Source of the DNA: Candidatus Woesebacteria bacterium
GTDB taxonomy: Bacteria; Patescibacteriota; Microgenomatia; UBA1400; MFAQ01
Length of the DNA: 64,000 nt
Reading direction: 5' to 3'
Assembly: GCA_035389185.1 (NCBI GenBank)
Contig: DAOORK010000001.1
Coordinates: 759,419 to 823,418 of the forward strand
The notes below the pieces were generated by a model, which was not told the DNA's origin, ran no database searches, and worked only from the letters and a program-made list of their open reading frames with translations. A program made the translations under genes and the position numbers. This document shows, piece by piece, positions 4,254-50,985 of the stretch; position 1 is the stretch's first letter; each line of letters starts with the position of its first letter.

Positions 4254-4273
4254 GTTAATGTTATGATGAAATT

Positions 4274-5956
4274 GTGACCATAGATAACTCTCAACTGTAT
4301 AAATCTCTCTCAGAGATGGGAGTGATTGATAAAGAGCAATTGGATGATACTTTTGAGGATGCAAAAGAAACGGGTGAAGCATTGCCTGAGCTATTGTTAC
4401 AGAGAGACTTGATATCGGATGAAAATCTGGGAATGTTGACGGCGGATCTTTTGAAAGTGCCATTTATTAGTTTGAACAAGGTTTCTCTTAATAAAGAGGT
4501 ACTAAAGACGCTGTCTGAGGAAATGGCAAGAGCAAAAGGAATCGTCATTTTTAAAATTGATAAAGAGGGAACTCATGTGGCAATGAGTGATCCAAAAGAC
4601 TTAGTTAGCCTTTCTTTTTTGAAGAAAGTAATCAAAGGTTCGATTAAAATTTATTACGCTACTAATCGAGACATCAGACAGGCTTTGTTTGCTTACCGGG
4701 AAGATGTTAAGCGAGTTTTTGAGGAAATTATCAACAAAAATGTGAGTGAAATCAAAGAGGGAGAGACAGAAGCACCGATTATTGAGTTGGTGGAGACGAT
4801 AATGACATACGCTTATCAAAGCCGTGCTTCAGATGTCCATATTGAACCAACAGAAGAAGCAACCCAGTTGAGATTTAGAGTTGACGGGGTACTTCATGAT
4901 GTAATTATGCTGCCTAAGCGAATAGAGGATCAATTGGTAAGCAGAGTAAAGATTTTGTCTTCTTTGCCAACAGATGAGCACCTGATGGCACTCGACGGTA
5001 AGTTTGATTTTGAGGTTCCGGATATGGAGAGGATTGATGTTCGTGTATCAATAGTGCCGTCAACTCATGGGGAACGAGTGGTGATGAGAATACTGGCCGG
5101 AGATATAAGACGTTTTGCTTTGCTGGATCTGGGCATTTCGGAGAAAGATATTGAAAAAGTGAGAAAGGCATACAGTAAGCCATTCGGAATGGTATTGGCA
5201 ACAGGACCAACCGGTTCCGGCAAAACGACAACACTGTATTCATTTTTGAAGATCCTGAACAAAAGAAATATAAATATTATGACGATTGAGGATCCTGTTG
5301 AGTACCAGATACAGGGAGTAAACCAGATCCAAGTTAATCAAAAAACTAATTTAACATTTGCGGCAGGATTAAAGAGTATTGTTCGTCAAGATCCTAATGT
5401 TATTTTGGTTGGAGAGATACGTGATGAAGATACTGCTTCAATTGCGGTAAACGCGGCAATGACCGGACACTTGGTACTGTCAACTTTGCATACCAGTGAC
5501 GCGGCAACGACGATTCCGCGATTGCTGGAGATGAAGGTTGAGCCATTTTTGATCGCTTCGTCGGTGAGTTTGATTGTGGGTCAGAGATTAGTAAGAAAGG
5601 TTTGCACAAGTTGCCGAATGAGTGTTTTTGATGACGAGATGAAAGCGGCTATCGATGAGTTACCAAAAGACTTGATAAAGAAACATCTCGGAAAGATTAA
5701 TGTTGATACGAGACTGTATCGAGGAAAGGGCTGTCCTGTTTGTCAAAATACCGGATACACCGGTCGGGTGGGGATTTTTGAGATGATACCAATGACACCA
5801 GCGATTAAAGAAGCGATTATGAACAAAGCCGATGCCGGAGAAATAAAGAAAATAGCTATCAAAGAGGGAATGACGACGATGGTGGAAGACGGCCTCGAGA
5901 AGATGAAGATGGGTATTACAACTCCTGAGGAGTTATTAAGAGTAATAAAAGAATAA
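4274..5956 (+). CDS. pilB: type IV pilus assembly ATPase PilB/GspE family
   Basis: Walker A GPTGSGKTTTLYS, Asp/His boxes, C-terminal CxxC...CxxC zinc motif (CTSC...CPVC), N-terminal GSPII-like domain. Confidence 0.9.
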   Translation: MTIDNSQLYKSLSEMGVIDKEQLDDTFEDAKETGEALPELLLQRDLISDENLGMLTADLLKVPFISLNKVSLNKEVLKTLSEEMARAKGIVIFKIDKEGTHVAMSDPKDLVSLSFLKKVIKGSIKIYYATNRDIRQALFAYREDVKRVFEEIINKNVSEIKEGETEAPIIELVETIMTYAYQSRASDVHIEPTEEATQLRFRVDGVLHDVIMLPKRIEDQLVSRVKILSSLPTDEHLMALDGKFDFEVPDMERIDVRVSIVPSTHGERVVMRILAGDIRRFALLDLGISEKDIEKVRKAYSKPFGMVLATGPTGSGKTTTLYSFLKILNKRNINIMTIEDPVEYQIQGVNQIQVNQKTNLTFAAGLKSIVRQDPNVILVGEIRDEDTASIAVNAAMTGHLVLSTLHTSDAATTIPRLLEMKVEPFLIASSVSLIVGQRLVRKVCTSCRMSVFDDEMKAAIDELPKDLIKKHLGKINVDTRLYRGKGCPVCQNTGYTGRVGIFEMIPMTPAIKEAIMNKADAGEIKKIAIKEGMTTMVEDGLEKMKMGITTPEELLRVIKE

Positions 5957-6999
5957 TGGCAGTTTCAGCCGATGACAAACTATTTTTAACAAAGCGCCTG
6001 GCAATAATGATCAAAGCGGGAGTGCCGATGGATGAGACCTTGATGACCATGGCCGAACAATCACCATCTGATTTGGCTAAAGTGCTTAATAAAGTAAAAA
6101 AAGATGTAGATAATGGTACGAGTTTGGGAGAAGCATTCGAGAAGTATCCAAAAATATTCGATAAGTTTTTTGTTTCTTTGGTTAAAGCCGGTGATGTTTC
6201 GGGTACTTTGGAAGAAGCCTTGGAGTTTTTGGCGGAACAGATGGGAAAAAATATTCTCCTCAAGAAAAAAGTGCAAGGAGCTTTGGCTTATCCAATGTTG
6301 GTTTTGGCGGCAACTTTTATGATGGGTATTGGTATTTCTTGGTTTGTTTTACCGCAGCTTGTGGACATGTTCGCATCGTTTGAGGTAAATCTTCCTTGGT
6401 CAACAAGATTACTCATGGGTTTTGCTGAGTTTATGAAAAACTACGGCATGATTGCTGTTCCGGCACTAATTGGTGTATTTTTTGCACTAACGGCACTTGT
6501 CCAGATAAAAAGTATAAGGAGGTTGTGGGACAGATTTGTTTTGAAAATACCTTTTTGGGGAAAGGTGGTGATTGATGGCCAGATGGGTGAGTTTAGCCGG
6601 AATATGGGTACCTTACTTAAAAGCGGTATACCGGTAACTGATGCTTTTACCGTGACGGCCAATACACTGTCGAATCGAAAATTTATTGAGGATCTTGGAG
6701 AGGTAAAAGAAGAAGTCCAAGAAGGAAAAACAATTGCCGAAGCCATGAGCCGAAAAGAGTATTGGGAGTTTGGAAAACTAGCGATTCGAATGATTGGTGT
6801 GGGTGAGAAGAGCGGAAATCTGGAGGAAATGTTTGCTTATTTGGCTACGTACTATGAAGAAGAAATTGACAATACAAGTAAAAATTTGACAACACTTTTG
6901 GAACCGGTGTTGTTACTATTCATCGGATTGGTAGTAGGTTTTGTGGCGATGGCGATTATCAGCCCGATCTACACAATGGTGGGTAGTTTGGGAAGTTAA
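5956..6999 (+). CDS. pilC: type IV pilus platform protein PilC/GspF family
   Basis: two T2SSF-like repeats, 3 TM; ATGA overlap with pilB stop (translational coupling). Confidence 0.85.
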   Translation: MAVSADDKLFLTKRLAIMIKAGVPMDETLMTMAEQSPSDLAKVLNKVKKDVDNGTSLGEAFEKYPKIFDKFFVSLVKAGDVSGTLEEALEFLAEQMGKNILLKKKVQGALAYPMLVLAATFMMGIGISWFVLPQLVDMFASFEVNLPWSTRLLMGFAEFMKNYGMIAVPALIGVFFALTALVQIKSIRRLWDRFVLKIPFWGKVVIDGQMGEFSRNMGTLLKSGIPVTDAFTVTANTLSNRKFIEDLGEVKEEVQEGKTIAEAMSRKEYWEFGKLAIRMIGVGEKSGNLEEMFAYLATYYEEEIDNTSKNLTTLLEPVLLLFIGLVVGFVAMAIISPIYTMVGSLGS

Positions 7000-7000
7000 T

Positions 7001-7429
7001 ATGAAAGGGGTAACTTTTTTGGAACTAATTTTAGTTATAGCAATACTGTTACTTTTGGGAGTGATTTCGGTTCCTTTTACGGGAAGATTTTTGGTCAGAA
7101 ATAATCAGCAGACAGCAGTTTATCGGGTTATGTCTGAGACATGGAAAGCTCAAGATTTTGCATCGAGCGGGAGAGAGATTAACGGAAATAGAGTGTGGGG
7201 AGTTTGTTTATCCGGAACAAAATTTCGATTGTTTAACGGAAATTGTACGAGTCCTACCTTTAAAGAAGATTATGATATGCCGGTTGGAGTAAGTATTTCG
7301 GGTATAGAAAGCGTAACCTTTGATAACTTGACCGGAGAGCCTTCCGGGGTGACAACTATCACGATAAGTAATGAAGCGAGGAGTAACACAATTACCATTA
7401 ATGCTGTGGGGATGATAGAAGAAAATTGA
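7001..7429 (+). CDS. prepilin-like minor pilin/pseudopilin
   Basis: N-terminus MKG|VTFLELILVIAILLL, class III signal with Glu at +5; start taken at ATG 7001 rather than ORF-track 6941, which would overlap pilC. Confidence 0.6.
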   Translation: MKGVTFLELILVIAILLLLGVISVPFTGRFLVRNNQQTAVYRVMSETWKAQDFASSGREINGNRVWGVCLSGTKFRLFNGNCTSPTFKEDYDMPVGVSISGIESVTFDNLTGEPSGVTTITISNEARSNTITINAVGMIEEN

Positions 7430-7430
7430 T

Positions 7431-9239
7431 ATGAATAAAAAGAGATTACAGTCTGGCTTTGGATTATTGGAGGTGATTTTGGCGTCCGGACTGTGGTTAA
7501 TTTTGGCTGCCGCGGGAACAATGATGCTCGCCGGGAGTTTGAGACTAAATTCACAGTCGACAGATAATGATCAAGCTGTTTTATTGGCTACGGAAGGTTT
7601 GGAAGCGGTTAGAACCATCAAAAAAAATGGATGGATGTCTCCTTTTCTGGCAACCGATTGTTTGGCAGGGTGCGGAGTGGCGACAGTTTCCGGTACTTGG
7701 GGATTTGGAGGATCGAGTAACACTATCGGAAAATACACAAGAAAGATAACCGTAAGCCCGGTGAGCCGAGACACTGAAGGTAATGTTGTGGGAAGCGGTG
7801 GTGCAGTGGACACAAATACATATAAAGTGGAGTCTAAAGTTACTTGGCAGAGAACCCCTGTTGTATCCGGATCGGTGACTTTGATAACGTATTTAACAAA
7901 CTACATTAAGTCAATTGTGTCCACCTTGACGGGGGGGTTGTTAATCTATGGAGATGGAACTACCGTACCGCAGTATCGATTGTTTGATAGGGTAACAAAC
8001 TTTTCGACAGAACAAAGCGGTCCGATCGGAGGAGCAGGGGGTACTTTCCAGATGGATACGTCTCCGATAAAAACTGAGGCTGTTGCCGGTTATGTAACCG
8101 GGTCCGGTGCCCTACAGATAATGTGCTTTGACGGAGTAACCTGGAGTAACGAGTGGAGTGTAAATGTCGGCGGGACGGCTAGCACAAGAAGATTTGATGT
8201 TGCTTATGAAAATAACTCGGGTGATGTGTTGGTGCTTTATAGCGGAAATACAGTTAGTAACGAACTGCGTTACCGAGTCAAGTCTGGGGCAAGTGATTGT
8301 GGAAGCTCTGCCTGGTCGGCAGAAAACAGTTTAAATTCAGCAAGAACAAATGGAGTGATTCATTGGGTGAAAATGGCTGTAGATAGGAGATTATCTTCAG
8401 ACTTGATCGGAGCAATTTGGGCTGATGAAAATGCTGACCTTTCGTCGATGGTTTGGAACGGGAGCGCCTGGGTAAATGAACCTAGTGCACTCCTAGCGAC
8501 AGATCTGGAAGTAGTATCAACGGCACAAGATGTTGAGGATTTTGATTTGGAATATGAATCTTTGTCGGGTGACCTGATGGTTGTTTGGGCAATTTCGGCG
8601 GGGAATAATGGGACAAACGGTGTTAGATATGCGACCTGCACCGGAGGTACGGCTAATTGTACTTGGACACTAAACTTAACACCACCCACTTTTAAAGATG
8701 ATGCCACTAATTTGGACTTGGCTGCTGATCCAATAACTGACCAATTGGTCTTTGCTTCAATTGGAGATGCAGGGTCTGACCTGCAAATAGGATTCTGGGA
8801 TGGAACCGGGTGGTCAAACAAGGCAAATCTGGATACTTCGGCAGGAACTCCACTTGCGGGTACAAAAATAGTTTCTTCGGGCTGGCTGGCAAGCGGTACT
8901 ACCAGTCGTTTTGTGGTGGTGTACACAGACTCATCAGAGAGTGGAATAAATTGGTATGTAAGTAATGCCGCCGGTGTACCAAACGGACAGAAAGAATTTT
9001 TAACTTTACCGGTAATTGGCTATCCTAAAAAATGGATAGAGATTAAAACTGATCCTGTCGATAAGGCTCAACTGATCGCTGTGATTTCTGATGTAAATAA
9101 TGATTTGTATGCAAAAAAACTATTCATGACGACGAAGACAGCTTTTGAATGGAGTGATTTAGAAGGAGGAACGGCACTAGAAACAGGATTGACTCAGTCA
9201 ATCAACAAGCCGTTTGCATTTAGTTTTTGGAAACAATGA
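7431..9239 (+). CDS. large (602 aa) prepilin-like protein
   Basis: N-terminus MNKKRLQSG|FGLLEVILASG (G-1, E+5, hydrophobic helix) followed by ~570-aa Gly/Ser/Thr-rich globular region. Confidence 0.6.
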   Translation: MNKKRLQSGFGLLEVILASGLWLILAAAGTMMLAGSLRLNSQSTDNDQAVLLATEGLEAVRTIKKNGWMSPFLATDCLAGCGVATVSGTWGFGGSSNTIGKYTRKITVSPVSRDTEGNVVGSGGAVDTNTYKVESKVTWQRTPVVSGSVTLITYLTNYIKSIVSTLTGGLLIYGDGTTVPQYRLFDRVTNFSTEQSGPIGGAGGTFQMDTSPIKTEAVAGYVTGSGALQIMCFDGVTWSNEWSVNVGGTASTRRFDVAYENNSGDVLVLYSGNTVSNELRYRVKSGASDCGSSAWSAENSLNSARTNGVIHWVKMAVDRRLSSDLIGAIWADENADLSSMVWNGSAWVNEPSALLATDLEVVSTAQDVEDFDLEYESLSGDLMVVWAISAGNNGTNGVRYATCTGGTANCTWTLNLTPPTFKDDATNLDLAADPITDQLVFASIGDAGSDLQIGFWDGTGWSNKANLDTSAGTPLAGTKIVSSGWLASGTTSRFVVVYTDSSESGINWYVSNAAGVPNGQKEFLTLPVIGYPKKWIEIKTDPVDKAQLIAVISDVNNDLYAKKLFMTTKTAFEWSDLEGGTALETGLTQSINKPFAFSFWKQ

Positions 9240-13681: not shown

Positions 13682-13712
13682 CCGCCCCGGTGAGGGGGCG
13701 GTGTTTGTTTTA
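13682..13712. terminator. bidirectional intrinsic terminator ccgccccggtgagggggcgg + U-tract
   Basis: 10-bp GC stem flanked by A-run and T-run; sits between convergent genes. Confidence 0.6.
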
Positions 13713-15029
13713 GGAAACCTCGGCGATCAAGTCGTCGAGAAGCGGAAGAACAGGCTTGGTATAAACCGAGCTGTTTTCAACGATGGTGTTTTTGAGGACC
13801 ATCAAGAGTCTGTCGTACGAGTAGCTCATATAATCGGTCAAGTATGACCAACGAGCGAGATCTTCGCGAGACAGTTTTGAAAAGGCTTTCTCAAGAACGG
13901 CCCATGACTCTTCGAAACGAGGAGCCCGAGAGATACGAAGGAAAAAACTGCGAACCTTCTTTGTGATCAAACTGGGAACGAAGAAGGCAGTCATAACCAC
14001 GATAATCGAAGGTGTAAAGCTTAAACCAAGATCGGTAGCTTGGGCAACTTTGTAGCCCATCAGCCGAGACATGGTCGGGAACAAGTGGTCATCACGACTG
14101 TAAACGCTGTTGCCGAAATTACTGTTGGCAAAGTTATTGATGTGCTGGATAGCGGTTGGAGCAGTTTTTCCATTGCCAATATCAATCATCGCTTTGCGAG
14201 GGGTGACGATAACATCGATCGTCTTTCGGTTGATTTCGTAGAACTCTGAACCACTGAAGTCGTGTTGGTCTGGGCTTTCGGCGACATCGGCGTTGGCCAG
14301 AAGATGGCGTGGCGCTAGTGTGCAACCGTTTGTGTCCAAGCGATCGGCGAAGCGACAGGCAAGGACTGCCCAGCCGTATTTTTTACCTTCGACCTCAACC
14401 AACTCATAGTACCAAGGGTCTCTCTTTGATCCGTCGGCACACTCTACCGTTTTCAGGTAGTGTGTGTGAGAGGTAATGGCGTAGGCGATCAAGAGCCGGA
14501 GATTTTTTTCGAGGATACCGTCGGTGAGCTCGTAGAAGAGCCAGGCGCCGACTTCGGCGTGACCACCAAGCCATTCTGAGTCTTGGTATCGAGGGGTAAT
14601 GGCAGTGCCGATATCGTGAAAAGCACCGGCAATAATGCCAGCGAGGACTTCGGCAGGTTGGTAGGTGGCAACGTTTTTATCCGTGGCCAGAGCGAAGGCG
14701 GCGAGAAGATCGCGACGGGCATGACCGAAGTCGTGTCCAGGACTGCCGGCGTTAGTGAACGGTGACAAAACCTCAATCAGAATACTGAGAGAGGCAGTGT
14801 TTAGGGGCGAGTAGTTCTTCTGAGCCCTTTTTACCAGCCGGATGTAGTCTTCTCGATTGCCGATTTTCCGGAGCAGGTTGATGAATTTGATGATCGTTGG
14901 ACGGTCAACCTGGATGTCCAGGTCTTTATCTTCCAGAGGAGCCCCTGCCTTGGTCATTTGAAAACGAGCAGAAGCATTCTTGACGAGAGAAACAAGACCA
15001 AAATAAATCTTTTTTAGAAAAGCAAACAT
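13710..15029 (-). CDS. HD-superfamily-like metal-dependent phosphohydrolase, paralogue A
   Basis: ordered motifs GHDFGH...AFHDIG...GGHAEVGAWLFY...AITSHTHY...ADRLDTNG (H..HD..H..H..D pattern); strong SD aaggag. Confidence 0.5.
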   Translation of the reverse strand: MFAFLKKIYFGLVSLVKNASARFQMTKAGAPLEDKDLDIQVDRPTIIKFINLLRKIGNREDYIRLVKRAQKNYSPLNTASLSILIEVLSPFTNAGSPGHDFGHARRDLLAAFALATDKNVATYQPAEVLAGIIAGAFHDIGTAITPRYQDSEWLGGHAEVGAWLFYELTDGILEKNLRLLIAYAITSHTHYLKTVECADGSKRDPWYYELVEVEGKKYGWAVLACRFADRLDTNGCTLAPRHLLANADVAESPDQHDFSGSEFYEINRKTIDVIVTPRKAMIDIGNGKTAPTAIQHINNFANSNFGNSVYSRDDHLFPTMSRLMGYKVAQATDLGLSFTPSIIVVMTAFFVPSLITKKVRSFFLRISRAPRFEESWAVLEKAFSKLSREDLARWSYLTDYMSYSYDRLLMVLKNTIVENSSVYTKPVLPLLDDLIAEVS

Positions 15030-15087
15030 TGTGAACTCCTTATGAGATGGGATTGGACGAGAAAAAGATTGTCAACGTACGGTGAGG

Positions 15088-15116
15088 ATTATATCCTATA
15101 TTAAGAGTTTTGTCAA
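15088..15116 (-). promoter_or_regulatory. consensus sigma70-type promoter TTGACA-N17-TATAAT (minus strand) in front of HD paralogue A
   Basis: reverse complement reads ttgacaaaactcttaatataggatataat; perfect -35 and -10 with 17-nt spacer. Confidence 0.55.
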
Positions 15117-15125
15117 CAATCTGGG

Positions 15126-16367
15126 CTAGGAAATGTCGTCGATGATGTCGGTGATTAGGCCTCGAGAGAACTTGAGTACGGGTGAGTCGCTTTGACGAAT
15201 TTTTTGGTGAAGCATATCGAGCCATTCGGGATAGTTTTCTTCGGCATAGGTAAAACCTTTGGCCCAGTGAGATTGTTCTTCGGGAGTCAGAACATCCCAA
15301 AGTTTTTCGACGTCGTTGAGAGTGGACTTGATGACAGGAGAAAGGGACATACGAGTGACAAAGCGACGGAAACGGGGAAAGTCTGGTTTGCCAGTTTGAT
15401 GACGAACGATATCGATCATGGTTTCGGTTTGGTTGATTTTGTAGGTAATAAGCTTTTTCATGACTGGAAACCGGTCGTCGTGCTGACTGTAGGGGGTGAG
15501 CCTTTTGGCACTTAAAGCAAAGTTTTCCATGTGCTTAAGAGTAGAAGGCATATTATTTTCGGAGATAATAGTGTCGGGTTTGAATAGGAAACTAAGGGAT
15601 TCTTTGTTTAGCTCGTACCAACTGTCACCGGTGAAGTCACGACCCTCCTGACGGGAGCCTTCGACGTTGGCAATGATGTGACGACAGAAAAGGGTGACTC
15701 CGTTGGTGTCGAGGCGATCTGAAAAGCGGGTGATCCAGATAGAAACACCGACGGGATGACCGTCGTCTTCAAATAGGTGGTCTACCCAGGGTTGGCGAGT
15801 ATAACCATTCTTGGTTTCAACAGGTTTGAGCTGATGAGTGTGAGCGGCGATAGCATAAGCGGCAAGACGGCGGATGTGCTCGGGGAGATAGGATACAGAG
15901 AGATTATAAAAAAGCCAGGCACCAATCTCGGCATGACCGCATTCCCAGAAGTAGTCCTGATAGCGAGGCCAGATGCCGGTGCCGATATCGTGATAGGCAG
16001 CACTAAAAAAAGCGGCAGTGAGATCGCAAGGATAGGCTTTGGCGGCGTAGGGGTCGGTGCCGGCCATAGCGGCGCCACTTAGCAGGTCGCGATAAAGATG
16101 ACCAAGGTCGTGGCCTGGTTTACCGAGCACAGCATATTGATGAAGATGGTGAAATATGTTTTTGAGAGTTTTTGGTTCGGGAACAAAGTTTGAATCTTGC
16201 TTACAGAGATCGAGATATTTTTGCCGGTCTTCCAGGGGGCGCAGAGTAGAGTCGACCCATTGAGAAATTTCAAGCTGGAATTCTCGACTTTGGAGCTTTT
16301 TTTTGAGAACTTGAGGTGAAAGAGGGTGACGAAAAAAATTAAGGTTGATTTTGAAAGATAAAGGCAT
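15126..16367 (-). CDS. HD-superfamily-like metal-dependent phosphohydrolase, paralogue B
   Basis: GHDLGH...AYHDIG...CGHAEIGAWLFY...AIAAHTHQ...SDRLDTNG; collinear with paralogue A; start set at MPLSFKIN (ORF-track start 16430 would overlap the MBL gene by 37 nt). Confidence 0.5.
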   Translation of the reverse strand: MPLSFKINLNFFRHPLSPQVLKKKLQSREFQLEISQWVDSTLRPLEDRQKYLDLCKQDSNFVPEPKTLKNIFHHLHQYAVLGKPGHDLGHLYRDLLSGAAMAGTDPYAAKAYPCDLTAAFFSAAYHDIGTGIWPRYQDYFWECGHAEIGAWLFYNLSVSYLPEHIRRLAAYAIAAHTHQLKPVETKNGYTRQPWVDHLFEDDGHPVGVSIWITRFSDRLDTNGVTLFCRHIIANVEGSRQEGRDFTGDSWYELNKESLSFLFKPDTIISENNMPSTLKHMENFALSAKRLTPYSQHDDRFPVMKKLITYKINQTETMIDIVRHQTGKPDFPRFRRFVTRMSLSPVIKSTLNDVEKLWDVLTPEEQSHWAKGFTYAEENYPEWLDMLHQKIRQSDSPVLKFSRGLITDIIDDIS

Positions 16368-16393
16368 AAAACAGTTTAGCCTATTTGGATGAA

Positions 16394-16972
16394 TTAGAGA
16401 AGGAAGGACTCTCCGTGGCCAGAGAAACATTCGGTGCCTGATGGAAGTTTGCGGATAGTTTTGAGGGATTTTTGAAGATCTTTGGCACTGGAGTAGGCAT
16501 GGTCGACAGCCCCAACTGAGTCGGCAAAAAGAGTATCGCCAGAGAAGAGATGGGGCTTGCTGTAGAGACAGACGGAGCCTGGGGTGTGACCCGGCGTATG
16601 AATGACAGTAAGCATAGCAGAGCCGATTTTGAGGCTATTGGGGAGGCTCTGGGATGGTGGTAATTTGAGAGGAGGAGCGGAAGAAAAGCGAGCGGCGGAT
16701 TTGGCTGCATTTTGGTAGAGAAAAACGTCTTGGGGATTAAGGTAAATAGGAAGGTTGAAGTTGAGCTTGAGTTCGAGGCAAGCTAGGCAGTGATCGAAGT
16801 GGCCGTGCGTAAGGATAATGCACACAGGCTTGAGCTGAAGGCGGAGAATTTCTTCGGTGATAAAGTCGCCTTCGTCGCCAGGATCAATGATGGCGCAGTC
16901 GCGGGTTTGGGGGTCAAAAAAGAGATAACAGTTTTCGCGCATTTCACCCACGATTAGAGTCTTGATTTCCAT
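16394..16972 (-). CDS. MBL-fold metallo-hydrolase (glyoxalase-II-like)
   Basis: HGHFDHCLAC zinc motif (HxHxDH), HTPGHTPGS, 192 aa. Confidence 0.8.
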   Translation of the reverse strand: MEIKTLIVGEMRENCYLFFDPQTRDCAIIDPGDEGDFITEEILRLQLKPVCIILTHGHFDHCLACLELKLNFNLPIYLNPQDVFLYQNAAKSAARFSSAPPLKLPPSQSLPNSLKIGSAMLTVIHTPGHTPGSVCLYSKPHLFSGDTLFADSVGAVDHAYSSAKDLQKSLKTIRKLPSGTECFSGHGESFLL

Positions 16973-16998: not shown

Positions 16999-17018
16999 GC
17001 CCCCGTAAGAACGGGGGC
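16999..17018 (-). terminator. intrinsic terminator gcccccgtaagaacgggggc
   Basis: 7-bp GC stem, U-run on minus strand; follows vWA gene stop. Confidence 0.6.
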
Positions 17019-17028
17019 GGGATTTAAT

Positions 17029-17838
17029 TTAAGGGGTGACAAAGAAATTCGCGGAGCTGACGGGATTGCCAGCTTGGGAATTGTGAACGCGAGAACCGAC
17101 GGAGCTGCTGTAAAGCTTGAGAACTTTGGCAATGCCGTCTTTTGTTTGTTCGACTTTGACGATGTTACCATCGAGAAAGCCCATACTTTTGGCGATCTGC
17201 TCAAATGGGTAATTTTCATTTACGCCAATGAAAGCGGCTACAAAGTGCGGTTTTGTGTTGAATTCTTTGAGGAAAGCTGCGACTTCGATGGCCTTACGCT
17301 TGGAATCGTTATCGCCACCATCGGTAAGAATGAGGGTGACTTCCTGAACTCCGGTGGCGCCGTTGGCAAATAATGTCGAGGCGAAGGTCATGGTCTGGGT
17401 GATGCCGTCGTAGGTGGCGTCGAAGAGGGGGGTTGACCCATCGGTGGTGTAGTCGTTTCGGGTGAGCTCAACGAAGTCTTGAATGCGGATGAAGTCTTGA
17501 ATGGTACGCAGGCCCAAAGAACCACCTCGGTTGGAAAATTCATGAACCGCGATGTATATTTCCTGACCGGTTTTGTTGCGCAGAATTTTGAAATCACCGA
17601 CACAATCGTTGATACCGTTGATGATGGTATCTTCGAAACCTTTGAGCGAATAGGTGGAGTCAACGATGAGGTTGAGAACCAAAGGTGTCACGGACTCGTA
17701 CAGTTCGACCTGGGTGCCGATCGTGCTGGGCAAAGTATTGGCGTTGAGATTGGCAAGCAGTGCCTGAGACGAGGTCTGAGTGATGTGCTTGTTGTTGGCG
17801 GCTTCGATAATTGCCTGTTTGGGATCGTTTGTACTCAT
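17029..17838 (-). CDS. vWA (von Willebrand factor A) domain protein with intact MIDAS
   Basis: DxSxS motif LIVDSTYSL, downstream Thr, TDGGDN motif; 269 aa, no TM. Confidence 0.7.
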   Translation of the reverse strand: MSTNDPKQAIIEAANNKHITQTSSQALLANLNANTLPSTIGTQVELYESVTPLVLNLIVDSTYSLKGFEDTIINGINDCVGDFKILRNKTGQEIYIAVHEFSNRGGSLGLRTIQDFIRIQDFVELTRNDYTTDGSTPLFDATYDGITQTMTFASTLFANGATGVQEVTLILTDGGDNDSKRKAIEVAAFLKEFNTKPHFVAAFIGVNENYPFEQIAKSMGFLDGNIVKVEQTKDGIAKVLKLYSSSVGSRVHNSQAGNPVSSANFFVTP

Positions 17839-17861
17839 ATTTCTCCTTTTTGGGAAAGTAA

Positions 17862-17885
17862 GGGGGAGTTGTCTCCCCCTTTTTG
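17862..17885. terminator. hairpin gggggagttgtctccccc + T5 between isochorismatase-like and vWA genes
   Basis: 7-bp G/C stem with T-run on plus and A-run on minus; may partially insulate vWA from the upstream genes. Confidence 0.35.
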
Positions 17886-17889
17886 AAAA

Positions 17890-18846
17890 CTATCCGATCG
17901 GATCGGTACTCTTGACGAGCTTGAGGCCATGCTTGGTAGAAAACTCCGCGAAGGCCTGATTGGCCATGTCTTCGAAGCTACCAACAGGTGAGGTGCAGTC
18001 TTCCAGGATACGAATCCGAGAAAGAACTTCCGGGGCTTTGGAACCAAAGTAACGAATGATCGAAACGATGGTTTCGTAGACACAGTGACTCTTGGCCTGT
18101 CCAGCGATGTAGATCAAATCGTATTTTTGGAGAAGGTTGAGGAAGTCGCTGTTGATACCGGCGTTTTTGTCACCGCTATAAGGGACTTCAGGTTCCATAA
18201 TGGAGTAGTTCTCTGTTTGGGGAACACTACCTTTGATCTCAAAGTGAGGCTGACTGACACGAGCACCGGAGTGAAAGTAGATGGCTTCCATGAGTGAGGG
18301 TTCGAGGGCATGTTCCGGGGCTCCAAGAGGAGTATGGAACGGCCAAACTGCAAGAGTTTTCTTGCTGTTTTGCTCGAGAGTGGTGAGATAGTATTCACTC
18401 CACTTCATCTTCTTTCCCGGGGCGTATTCGTAGTCGAAATCGAAGATGGGTTTGACCTTACCGTCTTTGAGGTTGGCGAGGGTCACCAGGGTGAAGTTGA
18501 AAGAGTTTACCAGTTCACCGGTTGAAGTGTCGATCCACCAAGAGGGGAAGAAGATCTGCAGAGGCAGATGACTATCCAGACTGGCGGCGATGTAGGTTAA
18601 GTTTTCGACATTGCGATAGATCCACTCGATGGTTCGCTGGGTGTCTGCGACGGCACCAGGAACAGCTAGAGGACGGCCGGGTTCGATAAAACCGATCTGG
18701 GCATCGACCAAGAGGAGCATGACTTTCATTTTGTCTTTGGTGAAGTTGGGGAGCTTGGTGGCGTGGCCAGCGAGGTAAGCTTTTTCAAGCTCCGGGTGGC
18801 GCAGGATACCAACGAGCTCTGGGTGGTAGAAACTAGGGTTTTTCAT
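17890..18846 (-). CDS. isochorismatase-family (cysteine hydrolase) protein
   Basis: LLLVDAQIGF (Asp), ...IAGQAKSHCVYETI (catalytic Cys); 318 aa with extra central insertion; SD aaggag. Confidence 0.6.
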   Translation of the reverse strand: MKNPSFYHPELVGILRHPELEKAYLAGHATKLPNFTKDKMKVMLLLVDAQIGFIEPGRPLAVPGAVADTQRTIEWIYRNVENLTYIAASLDSHLPLQIFFPSWWIDTSTGELVNSFNFTLVTLANLKDGKVKPIFDFDYEYAPGKKMKWSEYYLTTLEQNSKKTLAVWPFHTPLGAPEHALEPSLMEAIYFHSGARVSQPHFEIKGSVPQTENYSIMEPEVPYSGDKNAGINSDFLNLLQKYDLIYIAGQAKSHCVYETIVSIIRYFGSKAPEVLSRIRILEDCTSPVGSFEDMANQAFAEFSTKHGLKLVKSTDPIG

Positions 18847-18857
18847 ATTTCTCCTTT

Positions 18858-20738
18858 TTATGAATGGGTGAGATTGAGATAACTGACTTGATAATCACTA
18901 GTGATGAGGAAGTGTTTCTCCCCACCCAGGTGGTCAATCTTGTCAGAGGAACAAACAATTCTGTCGGTGTTGGGAATGGTATCAAAATTACCATTTTCCA
19001 GGTTTTCGATGACGATTCCTTGATCGGTTGGCCAAAACACTTTATGGTCGTTGAAGGCTAAGGTGTGGAGATTGTTGTTGGGGTAGCCTGATAAAGGAAG
19101 AATACGATCGTAGGTGATCTGCCCGAAGTTATTGATAACGTTGGATAGAACAATCAAACGACCGCCTCGATTAACGGTACGCCGCAGCAGTATTGAGTCT
19201 CGACTAAAATGAACACAAAGATCCTGTAAAGAATCAGAGTTTTTTAGTGGAGGAACCTGTACTTCGTAGCGTTTGCCGTTGCTGATCAGTTGGAACTGGT
19301 ATTCAGCGAAAAAACGAGAAAGAGTAAGAACCAGTTTTCCTTCGCCATCTGCCCAGAACCAGGTTTGATTCGGGGCAATACTTATAGGTAATGAATCACT
19401 TAATACACTGTCGTTTACCAGCCTACTGATGGTGAGGTCACTGCCAGAGAGCTTTAACAGCCCTTGGCTAGTACCGCGGAAAGCGGCGAGTCGATTACCA
19501 AGGTAGATGGAAGTGTTTAGGGGAATCCAGGACGAGCCTGGAGCACTGATGGGGGTTAGGTAAACGATGTCACTGTCTTCGATATTGATGGCCAGATAAT
19601 CGTTACCGACGATGTCGAAACGGATAACTTTACCTTCAGGATCGAAGTTGATCGGTACCTTGACTGCCGTACTTGTTTGGGGGCGAATCCAGAGGAAAAG
19701 ACCGGTTTTTTCTTCGGAGATAGCGTAGAGAGTAGTCCCTTGCATCTTGGCGAAGATGATTCGACCGATACTTTTTATCATGGCTTCAAAATAATAGACA
19801 GGTCTAAAGTCGATGGCTGGAGTTTTGTGAGTACAGACAGGACATGCCTTTCTGGAGTTTGGATAGAAAGACCCACACGAATTACACTCGATGAGAGAGC
19901 TTTGAAAGTTTTTGAGGTCGTCAAGCTTTGGAGCAAGATAGTGATGTTTGGCGAAAACTTCATCAAAAAGGTGAAGTAAGTTATCGTCAATTGTCTCCGG
20001 ATGGGGACACAGTTTGGGGTAATTAACCCCAGATGTGAATAACCAGACTCCTTTTGAGGCCCGATCATGAAACTCAGTATACTTGGGGTGAATCTGCGAG
20101 TATGGATTGACGTTAAAGAGACTCCAGAAAAGGATAGTGTTGAAGCTATACCAGTCTGAGCTTTCGGTGAAGCTGATTTTTCCGGTGCTGACCTCTTTGT
20201 AGAGATCAGGACAAAGAAATAGATCTGTCCATACCGGACAGCGATAGCCTCCCATTTGCCAGGAGTCGGTGTCAAAACTGAAGGTTTCGATACCGTTTCT
20301 ACCGGCAACAAAAGCAATATTCCTGCCTGAAACATCCCCAACAACGATTTGCTGTTGATGAATGAGAGCGATGTCTTTGTAAGCGGAACTGAGGATGGCG
20401 ACTAGAGTAGGAGTGTTGATCTTGAGATCGCGGCGAAGCACGCGGTTGAAAAGCACGCCTGCTTCGCGGAAGTTCTTGGGTAAAAGCTTCATACCGTAGC
20501 CACAAAGGTCGCGACCATTTTTGGTGAGTCTGGACTGAGGAACAATGAAGTTGTTGGGTAGGTGCGGTTTGTTACGCAACATGAACTCAACCTTTTTAAC
20601 CTGGTCGGGTTCAGTTGTCTTCCAGATTTTGATTGCTTGATCGTTATATTTAACGACGACGGCTTGGCCACCATTTCCTAGAGTGTCGTTGACATTCAGG
20701 GAAATTTCTTGGCCATCGAGCTGATATCTTTCAGCCAT
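18858..20738 (-). CDS. protein-kinase-like (ePK-fold) domain protein with Cys4 zinc-ribbon and C-terminal beta-rich (propeller-like) domain
   Basis: Gly loop GNGGQAVVV, Lys in QAIKIWK, catalytic-loop-like VGDVSGRNI (D..N), FDTDSW (DFG-like), SDWYSFNTILF (APE-like); CNSCGSFYPNSRKACPVCTHK zinc ribbon; start codon immediately follows the PP2C stop, with SD inside PP2C 3' end. Confidence 0.6.
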   Translation of the reverse strand: MAERYQLDGQEISLNVNDTLGNGGQAVVVKYNDQAIKIWKTTEPDQVKKVEFMLRNKPHLPNNFIVPQSRLTKNGRDLCGYGMKLLPKNFREAGVLFNRVLRRDLKINTPTLVAILSSAYKDIALIHQQQIVVGDVSGRNIAFVAGRNGIETFSFDTDSWQMGGYRCPVWTDLFLCPDLYKEVSTGKISFTESSDWYSFNTILFWSLFNVNPYSQIHPKYTEFHDRASKGVWLFTSGVNYPKLCPHPETIDDNLLHLFDEVFAKHHYLAPKLDDLKNFQSSLIECNSCGSFYPNSRKACPVCTHKTPAIDFRPVYYFEAMIKSIGRIIFAKMQGTTLYAISEEKTGLFLWIRPQTSTAVKVPINFDPEGKVIRFDIVGNDYLAINIEDSDIVYLTPISAPGSSWIPLNTSIYLGNRLAAFRGTSQGLLKLSGSDLTISRLVNDSVLSDSLPISIAPNQTWFWADGEGKLVLTLSRFFAEYQFQLISNGKRYEVQVPPLKNSDSLQDLCVHFSRDSILLRRTVNRGGRLIVLSNVINNFGQITYDRILPLSGYPNNNLHTLAFNDHKVFWPTDQGIVIENLENGNFDTIPNTDRIVCSSDKIDHLGGEKHFLITSDYQVSYLNLTHS

Positions 20739-21485
20739 TTAAATCTCCTTTTTTTGAATGAAACAGACACTGACATTGTCGATTGTTTCGGCCCTGATAC
20801 AAGCGATGCGGTTGAGATTGAGTTGAAGGCTAACACTTGTCTTTGAGTGGTCGTGAAGTTCCTCAATAAGCTGAGGAAGATCGTTTAGTCCATCCGAGGC
20901 CATACCAACAAGAGAAATGTTTCCTGATGGGAAAAGAGTAGTTTTGAAACCTGTTGGAGTAATTCGATCGATTTCATCGCTGCCGTTGAAGCCAAATCTT
21001 TTATAAAGATTGTAGGCTGGGTAGGCAGGTCTGTTATCAGGTGAATGGATGGTTTCAAAGATTTTGTCGTTTAGATAGAATGATCCATCGCCAACCGAAA
21101 GAAACATGACCTCACTTGGGGTGGCGATAATACCAAGGGCGGTGCACATGAGATAGTTGGCAATAAAGCCAGGTATATCTGTGTCAGAATTATCGAAAAA
21201 TTGACAATCGACTTGCCATTGGAGAAAGTCCAGGTAGTTTTTGAATAGACTACCGGCGAGGGATGGGAGAGGTGTTTTTTGAAGCACCATCTCGCTTGCC
21301 TTCCGGACCAGATAATGGTTGGAAAGTAGCGCACCGACCTCAGAGTATTTCCCCGCGTGGCAACCATCGTTAATAAAAATGACGGCATTTTCTCCATCAG
21401 ACCAAGACGAGATTGCATCTTGGTTGTTTTTTCCTTCACGGAAGTAATTGAGTCCTTGTGCCGATGCACAACTTAGGGTCCACAT
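20739..21485 (-). CDS. PP2C-family Ser/Thr protein phosphatase
   Basis: NQDA, FINDGCHAG, SVGDGSFYL, MASDGL metal-binding motifs; 248 aa. Confidence 0.75.
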   Translation of the reverse strand: MWTLSCASAQGLNYFREGKNNQDAISSWSDGENAVIFINDGCHAGKYSEVGALLSNHYLVRKASEMVLQKTPLPSLAGSLFKNYLDFLQWQVDCQFFDNSDTDIPGFIANYLMCTALGIIATPSEVMFLSVGDGSFYLNDKIFETIHSPDNRPAYPAYNLYKRFGFNGSDEIDRITPTGFKTTLFPSGNISLVGMASDGLNDLPQLIEELHDHSKTSVSLQLNLNRIACIRAETIDNVSVCFIQKKEI

Positions 21486-21532
21486 ATTTTCTCCTTAAAT
21501 TAAATTTTTAGAGTGCATAAGAAACAGGGGAG

Positions 21533-21562
21533 ATTATACAACCTCCAGTCTCTTATATTCAA
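21533..21562 (-). promoter_or_regulatory. near-consensus promoter TTGAAT-N18-TATAAT (minus strand) upstream of PP2C-kinase operon
   Basis: reverse complement cttgaatataagagactggaggttgtataat. Confidence 0.45.
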
Positions 21563-21666
21563 GTTCTAAGATATCTTAGTGTACTTTGTACACTTATGAT
21601 ACTACCAAATCAGAGTATGTCAAGTAGTGCGGTTTCTAAAAAGTATAGGTGATTGATGAATAACTC

Positions 21667-26430: not shown

Positions 26431-27168
26431 ATGAAAGCAATAAAATTTTCGTTAGGTTTGGGGAGCGTGGTGGCGATTTTGGCTCTTTTGTACTTCTTCC
26501 CTTGGAAAAACATTACCTGGGGTAAAGTGGTGATGAGTCCAGAGAGAATCGTTACGGTGACGGGATATGCGGAGTCTCAAGAACAAAATCAGATTGCGGA
26601 GTTTAGTGCCGGGGTGAGTTCGATAAAAGACAATAAAGATGAAGCTGTAAAAGAGGTTAATGACAAAATCAACGCCATCACAATAGCGGTGAAGGAGTTT
26701 GGAGTGAGTTCGGATGATATCCAAACCCAGTCGATGAGTGTGTACCAAGGACAGGAAACCTATTATGACAATGGAGTACAAAAAAGCAGACCCGGACAAT
26801 GGAATGTCAACAATACAATCGTGATTACACTAAGAGATACAGCAAAGGCTAACGGGCTGACGGACTTACTGACCAAGAGTGGGGCAACAAATGTTTATGG
26901 ACCAAACTTTCAACTGGACACAAGTAAAAAAGCAGAGGATTCCTTGATGGCCGCGGCAATTGCTGATGCTAGAGTCAAGGCGGAAGCAATGGCCAAGGCG
27001 AGTGACACCAGTTTGAATAAAGTGATTAGTGTGACTGAAGGAAGCAGCGGATCGACGGCTTATCCACTACTCTACGCGAAGGCTGATGGGATGGGGGGAG
27101 GAGCTTCACTTGAGGCTGGAACATCAAAAATAAGTAAGACGGTGACGGTGGTTTGGAGTCTTAAGTAG
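26431..27168 (+). CDS. SIMPL/DUF541-family periplasmic protein
   Basis: N-terminal TM anchor; characteristic two-lobed DUF541 pattern (VTVTGYAES..., ...KAEAMAKA...). Confidence 0.7.
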   Translation: MKAIKFSLGLGSVVAILALLYFFPWKNITWGKVVMSPERIVTVTGYAESQEQNQIAEFSAGVSSIKDNKDEAVKEVNDKINAITIAVKEFGVSSDDIQTQSMSVYQGQETYYDNGVQKSRPGQWNVNNTIVITLRDTAKANGLTDLLTKSGATNVYGPNFQLDTSKKAEDSLMAAAIADARVKAEAMAKASDTSLNKVISVTEGSSGSTAYPLLYAKADGMGGGASLEAGTSKISKTVTVVWSLK

Positions 27169-27351: not shown

Positions 27352-27424
27352 GGGCCGTTAGCTCATCTGGTAGAGCGCTACATTTGCAATGTAGAGGTGG
27401 CCGGTCCGAGTCCGGCACGGTCCA
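27352..27424 (+). tRNA. tRNA-Ala (anticodon TGC)
   Basis: cloverleaf: acceptor GGGCCGT/ACGGTCC with diagnostic G3:U70, D-stem GCTC/GAGC, anticodon loop TTTGCAA, T-stem GCCGG/CCGGC; CC of CCA encoded. Confidence 0.9.
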
Positions 27425-27596
27425 CCCTCCTCATAGGCGAGTAGGTACTGAAATTCGAGAACTGGTGATTGACTCTAAAGAAACTTCCATTTAGAATCGA
27501 CCACGAGCTCTTGGAGCTCTAGTAAGGATTGCTCCTTGAAAAGTGAATAGATTATGCAAGTAGATCGCATGAATTCAAATTCAATTTGAAATTTTT

Positions 27597-30822
<3,226 letters not shown>

Positions 30823-30887
30823 ATTTATCATGCTATCTTTTTGCAATCGTCTATTCACTATTCAGGGAGTAATACATACTTTAATAT

Positions 30888-30961
30888 CGTATTAGGTATC
30901 AAGTATTAAGTATTATGTATTGGGAAATGCATAATACGTACTGCATAATACGTAATACGAG
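30888..30961. repeat. palindromic array of GTATTA(N)GTATTATGTAT-family repeats in 23S-5S spacer
   Basis: cgtattaggtatcaagtattaagtattatgtatt ... cataatacgtactgcataatacgtaatacg (second half is reverse complement of first). Confidence 0.6.
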
Positions 30962-31033
30962 AAACCTTGAAATTTGATAAACGATTATCACTGGAGAAGA
31001 TAGGAGAGAATTAATAACTTTTCTCTATTATCT

Positions 31034-31153
31034 TGTCCGGTGATCTGAGCGATTTGGAACCACCTCTTCCCATTTCGAACAGAGAAGTGAAACAGGTCAG
31101 CGTCGATGATAGTGACTGGGCAACCTTTTGCGAAAGTAGATCATCGCCGGGCA
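31034..31153 (+). rRNA. rrf: 5S rRNA
   Basis: CCATTTCGAACAGAGAAGTGAAAC and GCGAAAGTAG conserved blocks; terminal helix TGTCCGG/CCGGGCA; ~120 nt. Confidence 0.85.
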
Positions 31154-49470: not shown

Positions 49471-49528
49471 GAAAATGGGATTGTAAGACTATTTTCGTTC
49501 CAAGATAAATATAGTGTTTGTTGACTAA

Positions 49529-50389
49529 CTACATTAAATCTGAATTAATTAAGAAACAAAGGTATGAATAGATTTGGAGCATCTGGCCGTTGTCAGTTCT
49601 TTCTTGTAAAACAGTATAAGCATTTTTGGGGTTAAAAAACTGTCTGTTAGTCGTTTCTAAGGGTATCCATTTCTTGTGATATTGTGTGATGTGTGATGTG
49701 GTTAACGGAATTTGAGAGACTGGCGGAAATTCTGAAATTGCTTGCCCAGTCAGATTGGTAACTTTGATATACCCAAAGACCCTGATGTTGTTAATTTCAA
49801 CACCACCTTCTTCTTGGGCTTCTCTTTGAAGTGTCTCTTGCCATGTTTCTCCATTTTCGATGTGTCCACCAAGAGGATTCCACCATCCATTTTTATCGAA
49901 GGTAAGCAATATACCCTTGTCATTTTCGGAAAAAGTAAGGGGAGTTGAGATATAAATATCAGAAGGGAGAATCTTACTTGGATGAAAAACGACATCTGCA
50001 GTAAGGTTACCTTTCCTGATGGTATAAGGGATGAACTTTCCTTGTTGAAGAAGATTATTTTTAATTTGATTGAGATCTATGTTGGATGGAATATCAATTG
50101 TTTTGGGATTAAGGTTGTTTTTGGGGAAAAGCAGTTTTGCTACAGAAAAACCTGCATAATTAAGAGAAATAATGTCATTTGAAGATTTTTGATGTTTTTC
50201 AATGAGACTTAGTAATTTCCAGAGATATTCTCTAATCGAAGGAGCGCTCCACTTTTTTCTTGAATCAAGGTCGATATCGGACAAATTTGATACAGGCTGA
50301 GAAATACTATCTGCTGATATATCCAGGGGGAATGGGATAACTTTTGTCAGTGGAAAACCCTTAGTTGAAAGTTGAAGAGAAACAGGCAT
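49529..50389 (-). CDS. NUDIX hydrolase domain protein with N-terminal extension
   Basis: Nudix box GGHIENGETWQETLQREAQEEGG in C-terminal half. Confidence 0.65.
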   Translation of the reverse strand: MPVSLQLSTKGFPLTKVIPFPLDISADSISQPVSNLSDIDLDSRKKWSAPSIREYLWKLLSLIEKHQKSSNDIISLNYAGFSVAKLLFPKNNLNPKTIDIPSNIDLNQIKNNLLQQGKFIPYTIRKGNLTADVVFHPSKILPSDIYISTPLTFSENDKGILLTFDKNGWWNPLGGHIENGETWQETLQREAQEEGGVEINNIRVFGYIKVTNLTGQAISEFPPVSQIPLTTSHITQYHKKWIPLETTNRQFFNPKNAYTVLQERTDNGQMLQIYSYLCFLINSDLM

Positions 50390-50390
50390 A

Positions 50391-50915: not shown

Positions 50916-50985
50916 AATTAGTTGATTATGATAATGTGTTTACAATTATAGATTAGTTGCCGAGATTAGGTTAAACTACAAAGTA

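Follow-up and report, generated by a model that had tools for sequence, protein, structure and literature searches.

The present analysis concerns four co-directional open reading frames (ORFs) on the minus strand of a 64,000-nt stretch of DNA ("the window", positions 759,419-823,418 of contig DAOORK010000001.1, assembly GCA_035389185.1) from Candidatus Woesebacteria, a member of the Candidate Phyla Radiation (CPR). They stand in a row at window positions 17029-21485, comprise 248, 626, 318 and 269 amino acids (aa), and encode, in the direction of transcription, a PP2C-type phosphatase, a kinase-like protein, a nicotinamidase-like hydrolase and a vWA protein. On balance, we favour the view that this locus is a chromosomal copy of a widespread cassette that links a switch based on reversible Ser/Thr phosphorylation to the salvage of nicotinamide. 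A switch akin to the TerY-P triad of vWA protein, phosphatase and kinase, and serving nicotinamide salvage exclusively, or at any rate regulated together with it, is the best-supported reading of our data. The role of the cassette may lie in housekeeping homeostasis of nicotinamide adenine dinucleotide (NAD), in phage-host conflict over NAD, or in both.

Conservation of the quartet and of its proteins

Retrieved relatives of the quartet were numbered (L### for loci, P#### for proteins), and gene orders are abbreviated with P for PP2C, K for kinase, I for hydrolase and V for vWA. Across a pooled set of 173 kinase-bearing loci, forming 109 clusters at 80% identity, all four genes were present in 72 clusters, either as PKIV or as the permutation IVPK. 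This rules out a chance juxtaposition of four genes; the comparison of gene neighbourhoods that an earlier note on this DNA, written from the sequence alone, had suggested thus found the quartet strongly syntenic elsewhere. Among close homologues of the kinase, the gene order was kept in eight out of eight loci (in one the vWA gene is frameshifted, in another the contig ends early), and their positions appear stable, with L001, L003, L007 and L008 having neighbours in common. The 626-aa protein itself is 100% identical to a hypothetical protein from a metagenome-assembled genome (MAG) of Candidatus Woesebacteria (905-kb contig). A metagenome search with a narrower kinase alignment returned 69 loci. 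Together, 22 metagenome and five close-homologue loci had a full-length kinase and enough flank to be assessed; 19 of these 27 were PKIV and four IVPK, two lacked only the vWA gene, and two consisted of PP2C and kinase only.

Two fixed pairs make up the quartet, PP2C-kinase and hydrolase-vWA. The PP2C gene adjoins the kinase gene in every locus, and both proteins are fused into a single one in the relative P0193 (840 aa). A lineage on contigs WNF* with a P0138-like kinase (L089-L092, L094, L105) carries PP2C and kinase without hydrolase or vWA genes in the ∼7 kb downstream (L091), and thus the PP2C-kinase pair can occur on its own. Kinases that are more distant and shorter (417-480 aa) sit in plain vWA-PP2C-kinase arrays that lack the hydrolase (L146, L148, L153, L154). 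Beyond the four genes, no conserved neighbour unrelated to NAD was found. The quartet is spread over CPR bacteria, Chloroflexota, a Polyangiaceae MAG, many unclassified metagenome contigs and phage genomes. Within the best 80 GTDB loci by hydrolase similarity, eight had the full quartet (a Patescibacteria MAG, Chloroflexia, Candidatus Chlorohelix, a Polyangiaceae MAG and unclassified bacteria) and two a partial one; loci with the hydrolase alone were mainly from Anaerolineae.

The N-terminus of the 626-aa protein is kinase-like, as judged from profiles and conserved residues. Its Pkinase match scored 21.5 bits, under the curated 31.7-bit cut-off, and extends over residues 19-266 (model positions 6-248 of 263). 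A word-indexed search found 13 close relatives only, whereas an exhaustive profile search returned 215 cluster representatives at E<=1e-30 and 1088 with a limit of E<=1e-10; among the 150 listed matches, most were ∼620 aa long and aligned end to end. In a set of 62 relatives with 23-45% identity to the window protein, G23 and G24 of the glycine loop (G21-x-G23-G24), the ATP-anchoring lysine K37, the catalytic D135 and N140, two aspartates at the DFG position (D156, D158), D195 of the DxWS motif and R226 were invariant or at least 90% conserved. Pfam Pkinase was matched by 39 of these 62 relatives at E<=0.01 (best 2e-11). Searches of PDB sequences with single proteins (phmmer) gave nothing useful, and profiles were required: the kinase-family profile matched 438 solved protein kinases (best E=3.7e-8) with the motifs in register, and these align to the motifs of RSK2. 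In the AlphaFold2 (AF2) model, the N-lobe reached a predicted local distance difference test score (pLDDT) of ∼80, while residues 169-270, in the C-lobe, stayed below 50, which is why the assignment rests on profiles and conserved residues.

The remainder of this protein comprises two further modules. C285, C288, C299 and C302, each at least 90% conserved in the 62 relatives, would form a zinc ribbon, and weak Pfam zinc-ribbon/HypA matches occurred in some relatives. The C-terminal ∼300 residues were modelled as all-beta (pLDDT ∼85), and Foldseek placed this domain with WD40, clathrin-terminal-domain and Ycf48 propellers and with the kinase-WD40 protein LRRK2 (E ∼1e-7 to 1e-6); propeller matches dominate the Foldseek ranking.

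The two remaining members of the triad, like the kinase, retain their catalytic or metal-ion-dependent adhesion site (MIDAS) residues, as far as conservation among relatives tells. For the phosphatase, the PP2C_2 match exceeds the curated Pfam cut-off, at least 90% of 67 relatives keep the acidic metal ligands D23, D40, D133, D198 and D236, and the family profile weakly matches a bacterial PP2C structure (5d2u). The vWA protein scored 22.4 bits against a Pfam cut-off of 23.8 bits, and its profile matches the structure of the vWA protein PTMP1 (4cn8) at 1.7e-5. Across 54 relatives, the MIDAS residues D60, S64, T136 and D173 are conserved, and so are S244, S246 and F265 in the C-terminal tail, which makes S244-x-S246 a candidate phospho-acceptor. 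No match to the vWA protein was found among 72,556 PLSDB plasmids (tblastn, E<=1e-3).

In these respects, the earlier note stands. It had placed four co-directional minus-strand genes at the positions given here and assigned their products to PP2C, kinase, isochorismatase superfamily and vWA, which Pfam and profile searches bear out. The kinase landmarks (GNGGQAVVV, AIKIWK, VGDVSGRNI) and the four cysteines of the ribbon are present in the window protein, and both the catalytic residues and the cysteines are conserved in its relatives. Likewise, the metal-binding motifs of the phosphatase recur in its family, the beta-rich C-terminus of the kinase is a propeller by AF2 and Foldseek, and the MIDAS of the vWA protein is intact, with DSTYS (threonine at the third position) and TDGGDN.

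The hydrolase and its NAD-salvage neighbours

The third protein eludes standard family models: it remained below threshold for Pfam Isochorismatase (E=0.052, 14.1 bits against a 27-bit cut-off) and had no NCBIfam match. Its family is large, with at least 5795 proteins in a word-indexed search and at least 579 GTDB species representatives, mostly ∼307-aa proteins from Chloroflexota that are variously annotated as nicotinamidase or isochorismatase. D48, D91, H93, H171, K205 and C255 were invariant in 17 diverse members. The family profile aligns D48, K205 and C255 to the Asp-Lys-Cys triad of Mycobacterium tuberculosis PncA and yeast Pnc1, and D91-x-H93...H171 to the metal site (D49/H51/H71 of PncA). 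The AF2 model had a pLDDT of 78, with low confidence in the active-site loops, and the top Foldseek matches were nicotinamidases (3v8e, 2h0r, 2wt9, 3o93 and 3pl1; E 9e-6 to 4e-4, target-normalised template-modelling scores 0.6-0.7). The closest folds are thus yeast Pnc1 and the PncA proteins of Acinetobacter, Streptococcus and M. tuberculosis, followed by other cysteine amidohydrolases. From fold, catalytic triad and metal site, we infer that the hydrolase is a nicotinamidase of the PncA/Pnc1 type, its presumed substrate drawing in addition on the neighbouring genes.

A different substrate is conceivable. The enzyme is ∼100 residues longer than PncA, owing to an N-terminal extension and a conserved ∼70-residue insertion (aa 100-165, with W103, W104, W149 and Y153). 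This surplus, the lack of an above-threshold match in Pfam and NCBIfam, the low AF2 confidence around the active-site loops, and the fact that Foldseek also matched carbamoylsarcosine and maleamate amidases would all fit an enzyme acting on another amide that is made, sensed or presented by the kinase/PP2C/vWA module, for example in a nucleotide, a peptide or a modified side chain of a protein. However, nicotinamidases are the top matches by both structure and profile, the PncA-specific D-x-H...H metal site is present, and pncB, nadE and NrtR genes recur beside solo and quartet-linked members alike, which renders this explanation highly improbable.

Among close relatives, the hydrolase is the best conserved of the four proteins (81% identity compared with ∼60%). 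In a distance tree, quartet-linked hydrolases fall into two basal groups, and no residue at conserved positions separates them from solo enzymes; the idea of a specialised operon paralogue was rejected on this ground. In one metagenome locus (L100 2504-5468), the vWA gene stands between two nicotinamidase-like paralogues (PP2C-kinase-hydrolase-vWA-hydrolase), with pncB and nadE next in line.

The neighbourhood of the quartet points to NAD salvage. NAD_synthase, NAPRTase_N and NrtR_WHD+NUDIX were among the most recurrent domains in a Pfam tally of 143 genes flanking quartets, and individual scans agree. pncB, nadE or nrtR accompany 22 of the 89 non-viral kinase loci, always on the strand of the quartet and mostly adjacent to it, and such co-directional NAD-salvage genes occur in 34 of the 109 clusters overall, i.e. 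about a third. L116 reads pncB-nadE-hydrolase-vWA-PP2C-kinase with a spacing between reading frames near zero, L030 and L032 read nrtR-PP2C-kinase-hydrolase-vWA-Nudix-pncB-nadE, and nrtR lies directly upstream of the PP2C gene in L097, L098, L099, L102 and L122. Solo hydrolases keep similar company, with a nicotinate phosphoribosyltransferase (pncB-like) gene within 5 kb in 15-18 Chloroflexota loci. NrtR is an ADP-ribose-responsive regulator of NAD genes, and nrtR-pncA operons have been documented in Chloroflexi (PMC2330246). With such NrtR-governed Preiss-Handler operons (PMC2330246) and with PncA/Pnc1, our hydrolase family shares fold, triad, metal site and co-location with pncB, nadE, Nudix and nrtR genes; unlike them, it is longer (insertion and N-terminal extension) and stays below the Pfam and NCBIfam thresholds. 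We found no pncA operon with kinase, PP2C and vWA genes in the literature.

Two further arrangements were observed around these genes. In triad-free Anaerolineae and Chloroflexia MAGs (L022, L050, L054, L061, L063 and L087, ∼4100-8900), a pncB-like gene is followed by a co-directional nicotinamidase-like gene, with a T2SSE/CpaF-like ATPase gene between the two in at least L022 and L063. Besides, an Ogg-HhH 8-oxoguanine DNA glycosylase gene lies upstream of PP2C in L114 (5558-6220), L119 (4606-5289) and L128 (5567-6238); it abuts PP2C in L114 and L128, between nadE and the quartet, and is ∼0.7 kb away in L119.

How might the four proteins act together? The hydrolase would deamidate nicotinamide to nicotinate and thereby feed the Preiss-Handler route to NAD. 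The kinase may sense a signal through its zinc ribbon and beta-propeller and then phosphorylate either the vWA protein, possibly at the S244-x-S246 tail, or the nicotinamidase itself, and the PP2C phosphatase would reset the switch. The MIDAS of the vWA protein may hold and release a partner, most likely the adjacent nicotinamidase, so as to tune NAD recycling up or down. During infection by a phage that carries it, the cassette would serve to rebuild NAD.

Viral copies and relation to known systems

Scanning IMG/VR with the hydrolase alignment yielded 110 relatives, and ∼75 of the best 80 loci hold the whole quartet, mostly as IVPK and often with pncB or nadE. About 40 of the IMG/VR loci are near-identical, reside on 11-85 kb contigs and are at least partly of human-gut origin; a GenBank fragment from human faeces labelled Bacteriophage sp. 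is 98% identical to this group. Out of 50,697 GenBank phage records, the hydrolase (tblastn, E<=1e-8) and the kinase matched the same four, namely the faecal fragment and three uncultured huge phages. The genomes of the latter measure 462-595 kb, their cassette loci have GC contents of 23%, 40% and 56%, and in one of them nadE precedes a contiguous hydrolase-vWA-PP2C-kinase array. PHROGs scans of the flanks of viral loci identified portal protein, head maturation protease, endonuclease VII, HNH endonucleases and Nudix hydrolases. Since portal and head-protease genes lie no more than 6 kb from the cassette in some viral loci, at least some of these contexts are truly phage.

The gut-associated group has two peculiarities. 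In L170 (4325-5818) and the ∼40 near-identical loci, the next gene upstream of the cassette matches phrog_850, annotated as "RNA-binding protein" (E=5.7e-134), and the hydrolase of this version lacks the first ∼36 residues of the bacterial copies. A PncA-like protein of phage G, gp275 (PMC12484599), was considered as a family member and rejected: only the four phage records matched, and phage G, if covered, is not among them.

These viral copies bring up the idea that the primary role of the cassette lies in phage-host conflict over NAD. Phage copies would then provide a regulated route from nicotinamide via nicotinate and nicotinate mononucleotide (NaMN) to NAD against NAD-depleting immunity, and bacterial copies, the one in the window included, would represent counterparts or acquisitions by which infected cells protect their NAD. 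The huge phages with the quartet (one with nadE alongside), the predominance of whole quartets, often with pncB or nadE, among the best IMG/VR loci, the nearby structural phage genes and the joint occurrence of hydrolase and kinase in four out of four matching phage records all fit, and phage NAD reconstitution pathways (NARP1, NARP2 and NARP3) that counter NAD-depleting defence establish the principle (bioRxiv 10.1101/2024.02.11.579819; PMC13464706). On the other hand, bacterial cassettes occupy NrtR/pncB/nadE contexts and stable syntenic positions rather than defence or prophage islands, the GenBank phage records contain no cultivated phage with the cassette, and some of the IMG/VR contigs, being longer than 400 kb and identical to metagenome contigs, may be bacterial. 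We therefore regard a primary role in conflict as possible, if rather unlikely. Like the NARPs, the phage-borne cassettes with pncB and nadE represent gene sets for rebuilding NAD; unlike them, they contain a nicotinamidase and a kinase/phosphatase/vWA module, whereas NARPs employ Adps/Namat, Nampt/Nmnat or PnuC/NadR-like proteins. Neither nicotinamidase nor PncA is named in two systematic surveys, one covering jumbo phages and the other viral NAD-ADPr systems.

In a related, more speculative scenario, to which we give less weight still, the cassette is a phosphorylation-gated NAD-reconstitution module on the Preiss-Handler route that is common to bacteria and huge phages. Zinc ribbon and propeller might detect NAD cleavage or an immune effector, upon which the switch would free the nicotinamidase from the vWA adaptor. 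The nicotinamide released by NAD-depleting immunity could then be returned to NAD, which would make the phage version a fourth kind of NARP and the cellular one, also in genome-reduced CPR bacteria, an NAD guard.

With regard to known systems, the closest comparison is the TerY-P triad, which consists of a vWA protein (TerY), a PP2C phosphatase and a Ser/Thr kinase with a fused zinc ribbon (Anantharaman et al. 2012, summarised in PMC11090510 and PMC4978471). The window locus has a standalone vWA protein with intact MIDAS, a PP2C gene beside the kinase gene, and a kinase with a C-terminal zinc ribbon. It shares with TerY-P the three protein families, the zinc ribbon and beta-rich extension of the kinase, and the tight operon, and its distant relatives with shorter kinases keep the plain vWA-PP2C-kinase order mentioned above. 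In contrast to TerY-P, the window family has a constant fourth gene, the PncA-like nicotinamidase directly upstream of vWA, and its neighbours are genes of NAD salvage rather than ter genes, McrBC/CoCoNuT or DNA-processing genes. No association with ter, DNA-processing or restriction genes was found, and PADLOC models gave no match for the four proteins and little in their flanks.

TerY-P-like modules have been reported as stand-alone defence systems (PMC11090510), and the earlier note had taken the present locus for a conflict system, with the isochorismatase-like enzyme as a non-standard insert and possible effector. This would be in line with the triad architecture (PMC11090510) and with the horizontal mobility implied by the presence of the cassette in distant phyla and phages. 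However, PADLOC gave no match for the four window proteins (distant vWA-PP2C-kinase triads returned generic kinase models only) and no enrichment of defence genes in the flanks of bacterial quartets, the recurrent neighbours being NAD biosynthesis genes instead. Besides, the enzyme is indistinguishable from solo, housekeeping-type members, its strong purifying conservation (the 81% identity given above) is unlike effector diversification, and deamidation of nicotinamide carries no obvious toxicity. The hydrolase is a constant operon member of this kinase subfamily and not an obvious conflict effector, and we consider a TerY-P-type defence system improbable.

The label "ternary", which had been attached to the locus, turned out to be misapplied, since in comparative genomics it denotes MoxR-vWA-VMAP systems (PMC7159879). 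Common to both is a MIDAS-bearing vWA protein used as a peptide-binding adaptor, yet neither a MoxR AAA+ ATPase nor a VMAP protein is among the operon genes or their neighbours, and the window locus is not a member of these systems. Nor is the fusion of zinc ribbon and propeller to the kinase out of the ordinary, as had been proposed: kinases carrying a zinc ribbon together with a beta-rich domain, linked to PP2C and standalone vWA proteins, have already been described (PMC7159879). What appears to be new is the four-gene unit with its predicted nicotinamidase. No account of it turned up in the searchable literature, which does not extend to the founding TerY-P paper, where a prior mention is possible; likewise, nothing relevant in the literature joins nicotinamidase, pncA or isochorismatase with vWA, PP2C or kinase.

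A functional parallel exists in the threonine-phosphorylation pathway of Pseudomonas aeruginosa type VI secretion, PpkA-PppA, whose kinase carries a vWA domain. There, too, a Hanks-type kinase works with a PP2C phosphatase and a vWA domain as a reversible post-translational switch on a defined output. In that pathway, vWA forms one protein with the kinase, and the switch acts via an FHA protein on a secretion machine, whereas the present cassette has a standalone vWA protein, no FHA protein and a metabolic enzyme as its linked output.

Several findings weigh against a phospho-switch on nicotinamide salvage. The substrate of the hydrolase is predicted from fold, active site and neighbours, and the C-lobe of the kinase was modelled by AF2 with low confidence. 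Of the 80 GTDB loci with the most similar hydrolases, about 70 lack the triad nearby, which indicates that the enzyme works without the switch and that the target of the triad could lie outside NAD salvage. Moreover, pncB, nadE and nrtR are absent from the 64-kb window and likewise from the vicinity of the cassettes of CPR relatives, so that the NAD link of the window copy rests on orthology. Finally, a role in conflict retains some plausibility because an association with defence is on record for TerY-P-type triads elsewhere (PMC11090510) and because phages carry the cassette.

Operon layout, surrounding window and implications

The four genes form one operon-like unit (Table 1). Each ORF is preceded by a strong AAGGAG-type Shine-Dalgarno site, that of the kinase gene being located within the 3' end of PP2C, as the earlier note had it. 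The note's proposal that the first three genes are translationally coupled applies strictly to PP2C and kinase, where the stop codon abuts the start codon in frame (TAA|ATG); kinase and hydrolase genes are close-spaced, with 11 nt (including an AAGGAG site) between them and no overlap. The proposed near-consensus promoter is a genuine match ∼45 nt upstream of the PP2C start codon, but a better one lies farther upstream. Sigma-70-like matches in the region (16) show no excess over shuffled sequence (12.5 +/- 3.3), and neither counts as evidence on its own since such matches are no commoner than in shuffles.

Table 1. Window coordinates of the quartet, its domains and candidate regulatory elements.
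Feature	Position	Strand	Basis or remark
Candidate promoter 1, TTGACA-16-TATCAT	21596-21623	-	consensus match 11/12
Candidate promoter 2, TTGAAT-18-TATAAT	21533-21562	-	consensus match 10/12
PP2C-type Ser/Thr phosphatase, 248 aa	20739-21485	-	Pfam PP2C_2 E=7.6e-12
Kinase-like protein, 626 aa	18858-20738	-	Pkinase E=1.7e-4
Predicted kinase domain (~aa 1-270)	19929-20738	-	Pkinase match aa 19-266 and conserved residues
Predicted Cys4 zinc ribbon (aa 282-305; C285, C288, C299, C302)	19824-19895	-	cysteine conservation
Predicted C-terminal beta-propeller (aa 318-626) and stop codon	18858-19787	-	AF2 and Foldseek
PncA/Pnc1-like nicotinamidase-family hydrolase, 318 aa	17890-18846	-	Foldseek, profile alignment
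Intercistronic stem-loop GGGGGAG-ACAA-CTCCCCC	17862-17879	-	between hydrolase and vWA genes
Standalone vWA protein, 269 aa, intact MIDAS	17029-17838	-	Pfam VWA E=1.6e-4
Intrinsic terminator closing the operon	16999-17018	-	8-bp stem, 7 GC pairs, then TTTTTT

The 51 nt between the hydrolase and vWA genes hold a hairpin. It is real, and a GC-rich hairpin with a different stem sequence occupies the same position in seven out of eight CPR relatives; the CPR hairpins have a purine-rich, Shine-Dalgarno-like 5' arm (GGGAGG-type) and no clear T-tract after the stem. In non-CPR cassettes, the two genes nearly abut. A separate tuning of the vWA gene, as the note had suggested, would be compatible with these features but is not proven by them.

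Just downstream of the terminator (window 13710-16972), there are a gene for a 192-aa metallo-beta-lactamase-fold protein and two tandem paralogous genes for ∼435-aa proteins with weak HD-domain matches; a metallo-beta-lactamase gene recurs within a few kb of the quartet in L004-L006. Elsewhere, tRNA-Ala, 23S rRNA and 5S rRNA genes form a row (27352-31152), with an ORF (26431-27168) just upstream, where a 16S gene might stand; no 16S gene was found anywhere in the window. The 23S match extends over 3222 nt compared with a 2925-nt model, which implies ∼300 nt of insertions. GC skew is positive (0.08-0.41) in all 2-kb bins of the window (1-64000) regardless of gene orientation, the minus-strand operon included. 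Positions 48000-54000 have a GC content of 0.35, compared with 0.40-0.49 elsewhere in the window, and may be a foreign island. The longest ORF of the window (1225 aa) lies on the minus strand at 39695-43372.

In summary, in at least 72 distinct lineages a predicted nicotinamidase is tied to a vWA adaptor and to a kinase/phosphatase pair of the eukaryote-like type, often in operons with pncB and nadE or behind NrtR. The depletion and rebuilding of NAD are by now acknowledged as a main field of conflict between bacteria and phages, while post-translational control of bacterial NAD salvage is, to our knowledge, essentially uncharted. If a switch on nicotinamide salvage holds true, TerY-P-type triads would gain their first concrete output and bacterial NAD homeostasis a further regulatory layer. 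It would also provide a candidate for a new phage route of NAD reconstitution, within reach of existing assays, and bear on how CPR bacteria, with their minimal metabolism, manage a cofactor that they largely scavenge.

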